Positions 1,736-59,400 of a DNA stretch of 64,000 nt are shown one piece after another. A program made the position numbers and the translations under genes. The stretch's first letter is position 1; each line of letters begins with the position of its first letter. The stretch covers positions 16,616,001-16,680,000 of the forward strand of contig OZ024761.1 of NCBI GenBank assembly GCA_964016885.1, written 5' to 3'. The DNA is from Eledone cirrhosa (Eukaryota). Under the pieces are notes generated by a model. The model saw nothing but the letters and a program-made list of their open reading frames with translations. It did no database searches and was not told the DNA's origin.

Positions 1736-4700
1736 TTTTCTATTGGATCGGTTACTGTCATATGAAAACATCAATGACTCCTCAGGTGACTCAGACGCCA
1801 CAGCCTCAAGTGAGAGTGACATAGAAATAAACAGAGAAAGTATTGTCACGAAAAAGTAACTGCTTTAAACATCTTTTTACGTTATTTGAAATCATTTAAT
1901 TAAATTTTCGTTTTATTTTTTTAAACATCTCTTTGTCTGTCTATATCTCTGTCTGTCTATTTGTCAGTCTGTCTATCTGTTAGTCTGTTCCTTTGTTGTC
2001 TGTCTATCTGCATCTCCCTCTGTCTGTCTATCTATCTACATAACTGTTTGTCAATCTTTATTTCTCTGTCTGTCTCTAGACACAACTACAGCTTTAATAA
2101 AGAGCACAAGGGAACAATGAGGTGAGAATAGAGTCAGACAAATCGTTAGGGCATTTGTGCAATGCTCTGCAGGCTGCTACAGTTAAAAAGAAGACATGAA
2201 AAAACTGAAGTCAGTCATAACTGCTGCACTAAGATTGAAACAAAAATGGAATCGGCCTTAGCTGGGCAGTGAAAACACAACTCGGGCCCTCAACAGTCTG
2301 TTAGTCAGTGTCACCTTAGTTGACCAGTTAAAACTCACCTTTGGTCCTCAGCAGTCATATGTCTGTTAGTCAGTCTCACCTTAGCTAAGCAGTAAAAACA
2401 CACTTCTGGCCCTCAGCAATCAAAAATCTGTTAATCAGAGTCATCTGGATGCTTGTACCATTTTAAGACCCAGTCCTCTTCTGGATGATGGAGAGATTCA
2501 GGGTGTAGCTTGATTGAATTGATTCCAGTGTATTTAGTGTCCTGGCTGGGTGGATAGGTTATGAGATAGCCTGTATACCTGCCCTGCCTTGTGGATCACA
2601 GGTTTATATCACACTGACGACCCAGGAGGCAGGATGTGTAAAATGACTCCACTTGATTCTATGCCCACCCCTCAGTCTAAGAGATCCTTATTTATTGTGT
2701 TAAATTTCAGGAAGAAGACAACCCTAAGCAGCGGTGTTGGCTCCAATGTGGCCCCTGTCGTCACCCCTCCACCATCGTCAGCAAATTTGTTAGGGACAGA
2801 CACATCGACACTGTTTGTGAACCCCTCCTTCACAAACTTGTTATCTCAAAACCCTGTTCTGGTAAGTACTAACTTTCCTGTCAATAACATGATCTATTTA
2901 TCTGTGTCATCATCATCAACACCATATAAGGCAGAAAATTGGCAGAGTTGTTAGAACGTTGGATAGAATGCTTTGCATTATTGATTTTGGCTTTCTGCTT
3001 TCTGAACCGTGTTCAAATCCTGTTGAGGTCAACTTTGCTTTTCATACTTTTGAGGTTGATAAAAAAAATGTACCAATCTAGTACTGGGGTTGATTCTTCC
3101 TCTGTATCTCTTTCTCACTTTTTCTCTCCCTCTCTGGAAGAAATACATACACGTACACACACGTGTCTTGATGAGAGCTGCTTAAAAGTGCTTTGTAAAA
3201 CTTTAGTTTTGTTATAAATCACCCAAAATGTTGAAACAAGCTCATCATCGTCACCATCGTATAACGTCCACTTTCCCTGCTAGTAAGAGTTGGACAGGTC
3301 TACATAGACCAAGTCAGTACTGAAGTGGGGCTACTGACCTCCCAGACAGGCTGAGAGGTCATATCGAGTGCAGAGTTCTCCTAACCCCTTGTTTGGCAGA
3401 CTTTCTACAGCTGGATGCCCTTCCTATCACCAACGACTTTACAGCAGGTACTGGGTGTTTTATTGTGTAGATCAACAGCACTAGAGAGTTTGCCATATCC
3501 TTGACACAACTAAAGTTCATCATATTATATTCCTCTACATTCTTCACAGCGTAGTGGCTCTTATCACTTTCCCATAACTTACTCCAATGTTCATACATAC
3601 TTATGGTTTATTTGTTTCTCTCTTTTTTTTTTTTGTATATCTTATACCACCCCACTACCCTTTTACACCTGGCAACAGTCCCCCTTAGTAACACCGGAAA
3701 ATAAAAAGAAAACGAAAACTGCAATCAAGAAAACTACAGCAAAATCAAGTAAGTCTTTTATACTTCCTTCTTTTTCTTGACATGTTAAAAATGACAGCTA
3801 AATCTCCCTCAGAGAGCTATATTTATATTTAACCCGTCTGATACTAGCAACCCAGACAGATCCATTACATGAGAGTCAGCTAAAAAGTTCATAGGCTGAC
3901 TATGAAGAGGTGATGCTAGGGCTGTGAAATCTTACAAGCATTAATTTCAACTCTTCTTATTAATAACAACTACATTGTTTCTTTCCAGGGACTAAGTTGA
4001 AAAATAAATCTCATTTGGTCATTTCACGAGAGTATCTTGGGCAGCCTATGTACTTTTCAGTTGACCCTTGTAGTTTAATCCTTTTGATACCAACCCAGCC
4101 AAATCCAGCCCTGCTTCTATATTAAACAAATCTACCCATTTTAAAGGGTTCCTATTTAAATAAAAATCTTCCAGCATAATTTGATGCAGGTTACCAATGC
4201 AACTATGACTAAATAACTCACCACTCTGTGAAGTCTGACTTCACCACTATCAGTGTCTTTAGCACTATGACTGAATTGTGTCTTTAATACTATGACTAAC
4301 TGAATTGTCTCTTTAGTACTATGACTGACTGAATTGTCTCTTTAGTACTATGACTGAATTGTGTCTTTAATACTATGACTGAATTGTGTCTTTAGTACTA
4401 TGACTGACTGAATTGTGTCTTTAGTACTATGACTGACTGAATTGTGTCTTTAGTACTATGACTGACTGAATTGTGTCTTTAGTACTATGACTGACTGAAT
4501 TGTGTCTTTAGTACTATGACTGACTGAATTGTGTCTTTAGTACTATGACTGACTGAATTGTCTTTAGTACTATGACTGACTGAATTGTGTCTTTAGTACT
4601 ATGACTGACTGAATTGTGTCTTTAGTACTATGACTGACTGAATTGTGTCTTTAGTACTATGACTGACTGAATTATGTCTTTAGTACTATGACTGACTGAA

Positions 4701-56400: not shown

Positions 56401-59400
56401 TGATGATGATGGTGGTGATTGTGATGATGATGGTGGTGGTGATGGCGATTGTAAAGGTGAAGGTGATGATGATGTTGATGCTGGTAATGATGATGATATA
56501 TATAAACTCTAAACGGTTGCTTTATTGTAGGTGTTGGGTTTACCAACGGTATGATCTACATACTAGATTCCATGACTTTAACCAACAAGGAGACAGACAT
56601 CCACCATTACTGTTCTGACTGTATTACACATATTACATTCTCAAACAAATCATACTATCTTGCTATTGCTGTGAGTTCAATCCCTTAATTTTATTATCTA
56701 TCTATCTATATAATACTAAAAGTCTGTGATTGCTTGTTTGCTTGTCTGTAATGTAATACATCCAAAAGGGCACATAATGGGGAAAATACTTTGAAAGGAA
56801 GTTGCCCTTGAAATGGGAATACACATGGAATAAAACAAGTTTCATGTAAATCGGATCACAGGTTCCCGAGATACAGGGTTTTTCCGGGTACTTTCATAAA
56901 TAGAGAGAGAGAAAGAGATAGTGGTTGTGGGAGAGTAGATTGAAAGACGCCCATATATATATATATCATCATCATCATCATTTCATTTTACGTCTGCTTT
57001 TTCCCTGCTTGCAAGGGTGGGACGAGAACTGATTCTGGCTTGATTTCTACAGCTGGATGCCATTCCTAACACCAACCTCATTTACAGTGAGTGTTGGGTG
57101 CTTTTTTGCCGTGGCACCTCCACGACCACTTTGCAGTGGAATGATAGGGACCCCAGTCCCTATCATCTCATTTCTACAGCTGAGTAAACTGGAGCAATGT
57201 GAAATAAAGTGTCTTGCTCAAGGAAACAACACATCACCCGGTCTGAGAATTGAACTCACAACCTTTCAATTGCAAGGCCAATGCTCTAACCACTAAGCAC
57301 AGGACATATCAGAGGGTTCTTGCTGTTCCCAGAAAGCATGCCTTTTGAAGTGTTCCAAAAAAGGGGGCTGGACTAATGTTCTTTAACCATCCTTGGAAAC
57401 TCTTCAAGATAGTACCTAGTGCTCCTATGACAATCGGGACGACCTTGATTTCATGGCAGTTCCAAATCCTTTTTAATTCCTGCTTTAAATCCTGGTATCG
57501 GTTAATTGTCTCCTTTTCTTGCACTCTTGTGTCAAAGGAGCAGGCTACATCTACAATCAGGCACGATCTTTTTTCCTTGTCCAAAACCACCAGGTCAGGC
57601 CTATTGTGTTCTAATTTCTTGTCTGTCTGTATCCTGAAATCCCATAGGACCTTCACTTGATCATTTTCTATCACCGACTCTGGCTTATGCTCATACCACT
57701 TCTCAGAATGTGGTAAATTATTTAGTTTGCATAAATGCCAGTGAAACACCTTCCCTATTATATCATGCTTCCATCCTTTATAGTGAATCTGGACTAAACT
57801 TGTTTCATTATATGTTTGGTAGAGGGTCGGACGCCATGCTTTCCAGCATAGTTACGTCCCTTTACGATCTGAGTTCAAATCCCGCCAAGGTTGACTTTGC
57901 CTTTCATCCTTACGGGGTCGATAAAATAAAGTACCAGTAATGCACTGAGTAATTGCTGGCCTTGTGCCAAAAGTAGAAACAATTATTATATGTTATATTC
58001 TGCAGGGTGGTGGATTGGCAGCATCAGTAGATCATCGGACAACATGCTTTACGACGTAGAGTTACAACCCTTTATGTTCTAAGTTCAAATCCCACCGAGG
58101 TTAACTTTGACTTTCATCCTAACGGGGGCGATAAAATAAAGCACCAGTAATGCACTGGGGTCGATTTAACCAACTTTTCCCTTCCCTTAAAAATACTGTC
58201 CTTGTGCCAAATGTAGAAACAATTATATGTTGTATTGTGCAGGACTCAGGCTATGTTATATGTCTTCTACAGGGAGAAGTTAATGTGTTTTGCTATGCCA
58301 GCCCCCACCTCCCTCACTACCAACCCATCAGAGAGCTAATGTTGTATCATTATATGTTATATTCTGCAGGACTCAGGCTTCGCTGTATGCCTGCTACTGA
58401 GAAAGGGTGATGTATTCAAGTATATCGGCCGGTATCGCTCTCACTACCAACCTATCAGCGATCTGATGTTCGTTGAGAAGTTCCACTCAACAAATCCTAT
58501 TCTCTTATCTCTTGGAAAGGACAGAAGAATGGTAAGTAAGGGGTGTTGTAGAGACAGGAAAAGAGAGGAAGAGAGAGAGATAGGGAGATCTGAGATGGAG
58601 AAAGAGAGATAGAAGATAGATGGGGAGAAAGTGATAGAGAAACAAAGTAAAATACAGAGAGATGGAGTACAATGTATATATATATATATAGTAAGAATAA
58701 TAATAATAATAATGGTTTCTTTATTTATTTATTTAATAATAATAATAATAATAATAATAATAGTAATAATGCTTTCTTTATTAACCACAAGGGTTTATAT
58801 AAAGTAGACATTAAGGACAGTACAGGACAATACAGGACGGTACAAATAATAAATTTGAAGACTAAAAATAAATATATATATATATATATATACTGTTACA
58901 GTAGGTATGGGGGAGGGCTTCTTATTACGAAGTTAGCAGATGGTCTTCCAGAACACTTTATTTGCTGATCTGAATCAGATTCCAGCTTAACCCCAAAGTG
59001 TTCCCATGTATTAACTTTGGATTCCTTTACTGTCTCTGTTGCAATTCTTTGTGCTTACTTGTAGCACAAGTGCAAGGAGGAGGACTTATTTCCAGGCCAA
59101 GCTTTGTAAGCCTCCTTCGTTGCTCAGATGGCATCTTTGACCTCTTGATTGAACCAAGGGGGTCCTCCTGCCACCCAGCACCACACCAAGCCTCTTTCAC
59201 CCACAACATTTAACAGCTGAAGCAGAAACTGCTGCGCTGAACAATCTCCACTCAACATCTTCAGTTTGTTCAGAGAGTTCTGGATGCAATAGTATCTGCC
59301 TACCTAGTCCTGACTTCCTTATAAAATAATAATAATAATAATAATAATAATAATGAAATTATTGTGTAAAGTGCTCAGGTGCACTACAACTCATCAATAT

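Follow-up and report, generated by a model that had tools for sequence, protein, structure and literature searches.

The 64,000-nt stretch of Eledone cirrhosa contig OZ024761.1 analyzed here (the window) carries three multi-exon genes, and in two of them exon ends together with the adjoining splice sites have been duplicated into the introns. Judged from protein homology, the window proteins point to octopod DNA. The three genes, all assigned by homology, are as follows.

1736 to 6094, + strand: INO80E, last five exons (1736-1855, 2711-2861, 3679-3748, 5035-5200, 6016-6094)
10680 to 22183, - strand: zgc:193801-like gene, eight coding exons, homologous to Octopus protein P0010
26430 to 62561, + strand: CFAP251 (WDR66), 20 exons in the window

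Of 194 aligned residues, INO80E shares 183 with P0122 of O. bimaculoides, a protein that carries the Pfam INO80E domain. The zgc:193801-like gene (491 of 567 aligned residues identical to P0010) is conserved and uncharacterized; its source labels are C2H2-type or "TAPT1 homolog", and we also refer to it as the zinc-finger gene. CFAP251 shares 577 of 853 aligned residues with O. bimaculoides CFAP251 (P0155), a match that came from a profile search; a word-based protein search with one CFAP251 exon gave none. Exon borders were set by tblastn against Octopus proteins together with the splice dinucleotides. All 30 introns of the three genes are GT-AG and the reading frames are open. The translated exons that flank the repeat-bearing introns match their Octopus orthologues, with no insertions or extra blocks at these junctions.

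Five features in these genes contain copies of a host exon/intron boundary and are what has been called "mirage" repeats, a known kind of junction-spanning tandem duplication.

12689 to 12732, - strand: copy of exon end and donor in zinc-finger gene intron 6, 44 nt, source at 13243-13286, 91% identity, GT intact
33230 to 33979, + strand: donor mirage of CFAP251 intron 3, unit of 12 exon nt and 24 intron nt, the authentic site followed by 21 copies
38528 to 42301, + strand: CFAP251 intron-5 mirage family, short units and 156-nt units
53662 to 56365, + strand: donor mirage of CFAP251 intron 14, 33-nt unit, the authentic site followed by 81 copies
58222 to 58348, + strand: acceptor mirage of CFAP251 intron 15, a 127-nt copy of 21 intron nt and most of exon 58370-58531

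To identify copies that cross a boundary, we took a 40-mer across every one of the 60 junctions and aligned it both to the intron it came from and, as the null, to the other 58 intron strands. A clear junction-crossing copy was found at 5 of the 60 junctions, each scoring above every control. The zinc-finger gene intron 6 donor scored 58 versus a null maximum of 28 (17 exon and 15 intron identities), and the CFAP251 donors scored 56 versus 27 for intron 3 (11 and 19), 36 versus 27 for intron 5 (12 and 9) and 59 versus 26 for intron 14 (12 and 20). The single acceptor, that of CFAP251 intron 15, scored 56 versus 25 (16 and 18). The CFAP251 intron 5 acceptor also exceeded the null, with identity on the intron side only, and belongs to the same intron-5 duplication. 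A match at the CFAP251 intron 6 donor (29 versus 28) was discounted as a TAC microsatellite. An unanchored search of the introns for exon-only 17-mers flagged 2 of 60, one of them not a mirage, and is too weak a search to add to these results.

The initial annotation had described seven duplications or arrays in three genes whose units span real junctions. All seven are present in the sequence, and five of them cross a junction as described, in two genes only, the zinc-finger gene and CFAP251. The remaining two resemble the intron side of an acceptor and failed the crossing test.

4268 to 5019, + strand: array of about 27 units of 29 nt, ending 15 nt before the INO80E acceptor
17482 to 19005, - strand: AT-rich, low-complexity compound array of 32-nt units, about 110 nt upstream of the exon 2 acceptor

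Units of the 4268 array end in a pyrimidine tract and AG, like the intron side of the INO80E acceptor, and score 30 against that sequence versus 22 for the best other acceptor. The second array, at 17491, scores 43 versus 36 against its acceptor, but its 13 identities in 17 positions are found at four other places in the window as well, and only the first exon base matches. Both arrays may derive from acceptor-proximal intron DNA.

The five crossing cases share one arrangement. The authentic site is always outermost: it precedes all copies at donors and follows the copy at the acceptor, as exon integrity requires. The copies follow head-to-tail directly beside the authentic boundary at 33230, 53662 and 58222, and at 12689 and in CFAP251 intron 5 this order has been broken by later insertions. 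The 12689 copy, for example, is parted from its source by elements classed as MITE-like (miniature inverted-repeat transposable element) and SINE-like (short interspersed nuclear element) from terminal repeats and copy number, without a repeat library. In three of the five cases mobile elements were inserted after the duplication, and the ages of the events differ, with identities ranging from 74 to 95%. Four of the five are at donors, where the decoy GT has been kept in 79 of 81 copies at 53662, 6 of 21 at 33230, 2 of 7 in intron 5 and the single copy at 12689.

The two large donor arrays begin, as delimited by Tandem Repeats Finder, 12 nt inside the exon, so that the first monomer is the exon end plus the donor itself. 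At 33230 the 21 copies carry GT (6), GC (13) or TC (2), and read-through meets a stop after one codon. The 53662 array has 33-nt units in 75 of its 81 copies and 31-nt units in 6; 48 copies read GTCAGT and 28 read GTGAGT, as does the authentic site. The 11 copies nearest the exon all have the weaker GTCAGT, which scores 5.4 versus 9.6 for the authentic-site sequence in a matrix derived from the 30 donors of the window. The first 33-nt units (53674-53890) are in frame and free of stops, so that splicing at a nearby decoy would lengthen the protein by 11 hydrophobic residues for each unit instead of ending it prematurely.

In CFAP251 intron 5, seven copies of the last 12 nt of the exon, two of them with GT, lie at 38528-41980. 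The family is split by later insertions, namely a LINE-like piece (long interspersed nuclear element) carrying the 61-nt array and the following element.

42008 to 42220: SINE with target-site duplication, inserted in the intron-5 family

The 156-nt unit consists of the exon end and 142 intron nt and stops two bases before the acceptor; because it reaches from the exon end to near the acceptor, it contains the whole intron. Without the SINE, the last unit corresponds to an intron of 162 nt, compared with 3762 nt for the present intron. The unit at 41759-42301 thus preserves an ancestral CFAP251 intron 5 of about 146-162 nt. An intron of about 150 nt has grown to 3.8 kb, a record that offers a clue to how octopod introns lengthened.

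The acceptor copy at 58222 lies directly upstream of the authentic acceptor and exon, is 74% identical to them and retains its AG. The pseudo-exon (58243-58348) has changed at all three codon positions, with 9/8/14 differences in 102 nt. It keeps 4 residues common to O. bimaculoides CFAP251 that are changed in the working exon, and the working exon keeps 12 O. bimaculoides-shared residues that the pseudo-exon has lost. This indicates that the duplication is old. We rejected the pseudo-exon as a coding alternative exon, since use of its AG would shift the frame. A further acceptor copy is not an independent mirage.

57985 to 58006, + strand: third acceptor copy, the 22-nt target-site duplication of a SINE at about 58007-58221

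Proximity to junctions is not confined to repeats that carry splice signals. Large arrays without exon sequence, plain triplet repeats included, also lie near junctions, as at the following positions.

32421 to 33111: signal-free array close to an exon border
34023 to 37579: signal-free array close to an exon border
42394 to 42601: signal-free array close to an exon border
50334 to 50610: signal-free array close to an exon border
53322 to 53565: signal-free array close to an exon border
60879 to 61468: signal-free array close to an exon border

Eight of 17 such arrays are within 50 nt of a junction and 11 within 100 nt, the expected fractions being 0.10 and 0.19. With dispersed repeats and three transposon-derived arrays removed, 7 of the 14 that are left lie within 50 non-repeat nt and 12 within 100 (expected fractions, 0.16 and 0.30). 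Introns that hold signal-free arrays have shorter skeletons, the sequence left after masking (P = 0.036). The mirages look like the tail of this general pattern, in which arrays grow in short introns or near exon ends. Because signal-free arrays also cluster at junctions, a cause specific to splice signals, as in the earlier proposal that duplications nucleate at them, is not needed, even though an excess of crossing events remains in the window. A unit of about 33 nt, which had been singled out, is likewise not special: the lengths are real (36, 33, 32 and 29 nt), but arrays away from junctions have similar units of 28, 31, 39 and 24 nt.

Several other repeats and genes accompany these features. 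Arrays seeded from pieces of dispersed elements are present at 40143-41488, 30403-31009 and 42603-42885. The first has 22 units of 61 nt and stems from a LINE-like element, other members of which lie near 32040 and 45000; the second has 5 units of 119 nt, 100% identical, and the third 6 units of 49 nt. Long, near-perfect inverted repeats, seen by eye at about 6370-6510, 25320-25660, 27930-28100, 29840-29990, 52070-52250 and 52850-53140, occur in introns and intergenic DNA and represent foldback elements or local inversions. CFAP251 exon 43735-43909 keeps the frame, has no match in the O. bimaculoides models P0155 or P0245 and is not adjacent to any confirmed junction-crossing case. The window also includes a small intronless gene.

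23959 to 24483: single-exon gene of the cytidine/deoxycytidylate deaminase family (Pfam PF00383)

The deaminase gene stands head-to-head with the zinc-finger gene. We take it, as the probable identity, to be ADAT2.

To compare the number of crossing events with chance, we curated by hand 18 duplications with non-microsatellite units of at least 24 nt in the 30 introns, 7 of them from dispersed elements. Microsatellite and low-complexity arrays (e.g. 17491, 27546, 32421, 34023 and 47355) and blast pairs of dispersed elements separated by more than some 300 nt were left out, and crossing was defined as at least 9 nt on each side of a junction. Five of the 18 events cross, a modest excess over the 2.2 expected with arrays collapsed (P = 0.05; the P values for crossing are not corrected for the selection of the window on this very pattern, nor for genes and introns shared between events). 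When introns are set to 200 nt, 3.0 crossings are expected (P = 0.13), and at 100 nt the expectation is 4.9 (P = 0.59). Within the window, the excess is gone at 100-200 nt.

The simplest interpretation of these results, to which we assign a probability of roughly 0.65, is that the mirages date from a time when the introns were short, that ordinary slippage or unequal exchange produced them, and that they persist because the outermost copy stays the working site. A short-intron origin is favored because one unit holds a whole intron of about 150 nt and because the excess vanishes at ancestral lengths of 100-200 nt. Slippage or unequal exchange would duplicate 30-160 nt, and a duplication of 30-130 nt in an intron of 60-200 nt would have a fair chance of crossing a junction. 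Duplications that leave an intact outermost site would be tolerated, some copies would then amplify as any minisatellite does, and transposons would insert later. Splicing would be expected to keep to the authentic site through upstream donor preference, for which human F7 offers a precedent (PMC1557585). Nonsense-mediated decay would remove most splicing errors, leaving the decoys to drift. Most likely, then, the mirages are neutral and linked to ancestral introns of small size. The idea that the repeats reflect expansion of once-tiny introns is directly supported by the intron-5 unit and by the later insertions at three of the five sites, and CFAP251 introns 3, 14, 13, 17 and 19 have masked skeletons of only 52, 34, 43, 86 and 71 nt.

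Several observations weigh against this interpretation. The median intron skeleton after masking is 411 nt, a value inflated by unmasked single-copy transposon remains, and not all introns were demonstrably tiny. At present-day non-repeat intron lengths the excess within the window is real: among the non-transposon events, 5 of 11 cross versus 1.2 expected with repeats removed (P = 0.002), and conditioning on each event's own intron gives P values of 0.008-0.02. Selection against competing sites could account for the weak variants next to the authentic donor at 53662 and for the lost GTs at 33230, although each pattern goes back to just one or two founder mutations that array turnover has propagated. 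In addition, nearby decoys are used in human 6-16 and CBS (PMC1557585). The crossing counts are what would be expected if junction-proximal DNA were a true tandem-duplication hotspot, linked to transcription, R-loops or nucleosome edges, whatever the intron length. The proximity of signal-free arrays to junctions, the several ages of the events and their bias toward donors agree with such a hotspot. The counts nevertheless come from a single window chosen for the pattern and from a hand-curated list whose events share genes and introns, P rises to 0.05 when transposon-derived events are included, and short ancestral introns yield the same picture. We therefore regard a hotspot as possible but rather unlikely. 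A broader version, in which a junction-proximal, donor-biased hotspot repeatedly seeds exon-end minisatellites throughout octopod genomes and drives intron growth in general, whole-intron units being fossils of ancestral size, is a shade more doubtful still.

Function and artefact fare less well than short-intron slippage. The copies had also been proposed to be retained as decoy sinks or tuning elements; they could act as sinks for U1 or U2AF, in length-dependent control of splicing or as a source of in-frame 11-residue extensions from the 33-nt array. The 53662 array, with GT in nearly every copy, the full GTGAGT in 28 and first units open in frame, is what this would predict, and tandem repeats have been associated with splicing variation in humans and can alter splicing there (PMC10078293). 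Retention as decoys is nevertheless unsupported because GT retention is inconsistent across arrays: 33230 has mostly lost GT and meets its stop after a single codon, and intron 5 has lost GT from most copies. The homogeneity of units is expected from array turnover, and no such insertion is seen in the Octopus orthologues, so that a retained function is improbable. An assembly artefact is the least credible alternative. The number of copies in each long array is provisional, but the units differ from one another and from the authentic junction in structured ways, old copies are 74-91% identical with nested insertions bearing target-site duplications, and the pseudo-exon holds four O. bimaculoides-shared residues that the authentic exon has changed. 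Intron gain by tandem duplication (the Rogers model) does not describe the locus either, because the copies lie inside introns whose flanking exons match the Octopus orthologues.

Junction-derived repeats make up about 4.2 of the 46.8 kb of intron (9%), and all tandem repeats together 19.4 kb. Because only this small fraction is junction-derived, such repeats are a minor part of intron growth here. In O. minor, the larger genome has been ascribed to transposons and to introns that have become longer, and simple repeats amount to 14.7% (PMC6279123). With this single locus, mirages are extended to cephalopods. The roughly 80 donors in competition, and the decoy acceptor upstream of the authentic one with its AG intact, could serve as a natural experiment on how splice sites are chosen. 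A genome-wide, length-matched excess, if true, would matter more, because the mechanism by which mirages originate is stated to be unclear (PMC3087553). The initial annotation had considered the pattern undescribed. It is known outside cephalopods (PMC3087553, PMC1557585); a literature search for octopus or cephalopod mirages and for junction enrichment of repeat origins, with most subscription papers outside its reach, found no cephalopod report.

Mirages have been described in amphioxus, where the original paper on the Adh3 mirage is reportedly that of Canestro et al. 2002. In amphioxus globin genes and Adh3, minisatellite-like duplications with units of 10-160 bp involve both boundary types; AG or GT is present in many but not all copies, splicing is normal and length is unstable (PMC3087553). 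The globins concerned are BflGb6 and BflGb9 (PMC3087553, PMC3902484), troponin C and PGBD5 provide further examples (PMC3902484), and the arrangement is reported to be harmless (PMC3087553, PMC3902484). The octopod units likewise span a host exon/intron boundary and keep GT or AG in many, but not all, copies. In contrast to the amphioxus mirages, four octopod cases are in one gene, copy number reaches 82 and an entire ancestral intron is contained in one unit. For the amphioxus mirages, normal splicing and length instability were demonstrated, whereas the octopod repeats are known from one sequence alone.

Minisatellites at human junctions are a second parallel, comprising F7 (a 37-bp variable number tandem repeat in IVS7, intron 7), 6-16, CBS, lamin B2 and PDGF, and in F7, lamin B2 and PDGF the arrangement is reported to be harmless (PMC1557585). 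As in the F7-type genes, the first unit of the octopod donor arrays includes the exon end, and repeats of the donor continue into the intron behind the authentic site. The F7 copies are identical and include 4 exon nt, whereas the octopod copies have diverged, include 12 exon nt and are many more. Identical downstream pseudo-donors of F7 are functional but unused, a preference for the upstream site shown in mammalian cells (PMC1557585); cephalopod cells may behave likewise. In human duplicated genes, internal tandem repeats at exon-intron boundaries create new introns or alternative transcripts (PMC2812944). The octopod repeats resemble these in that tandem repeats at boundaries reshape gene structure, and differ in that no new intron or exon is evident in the octopod genes.

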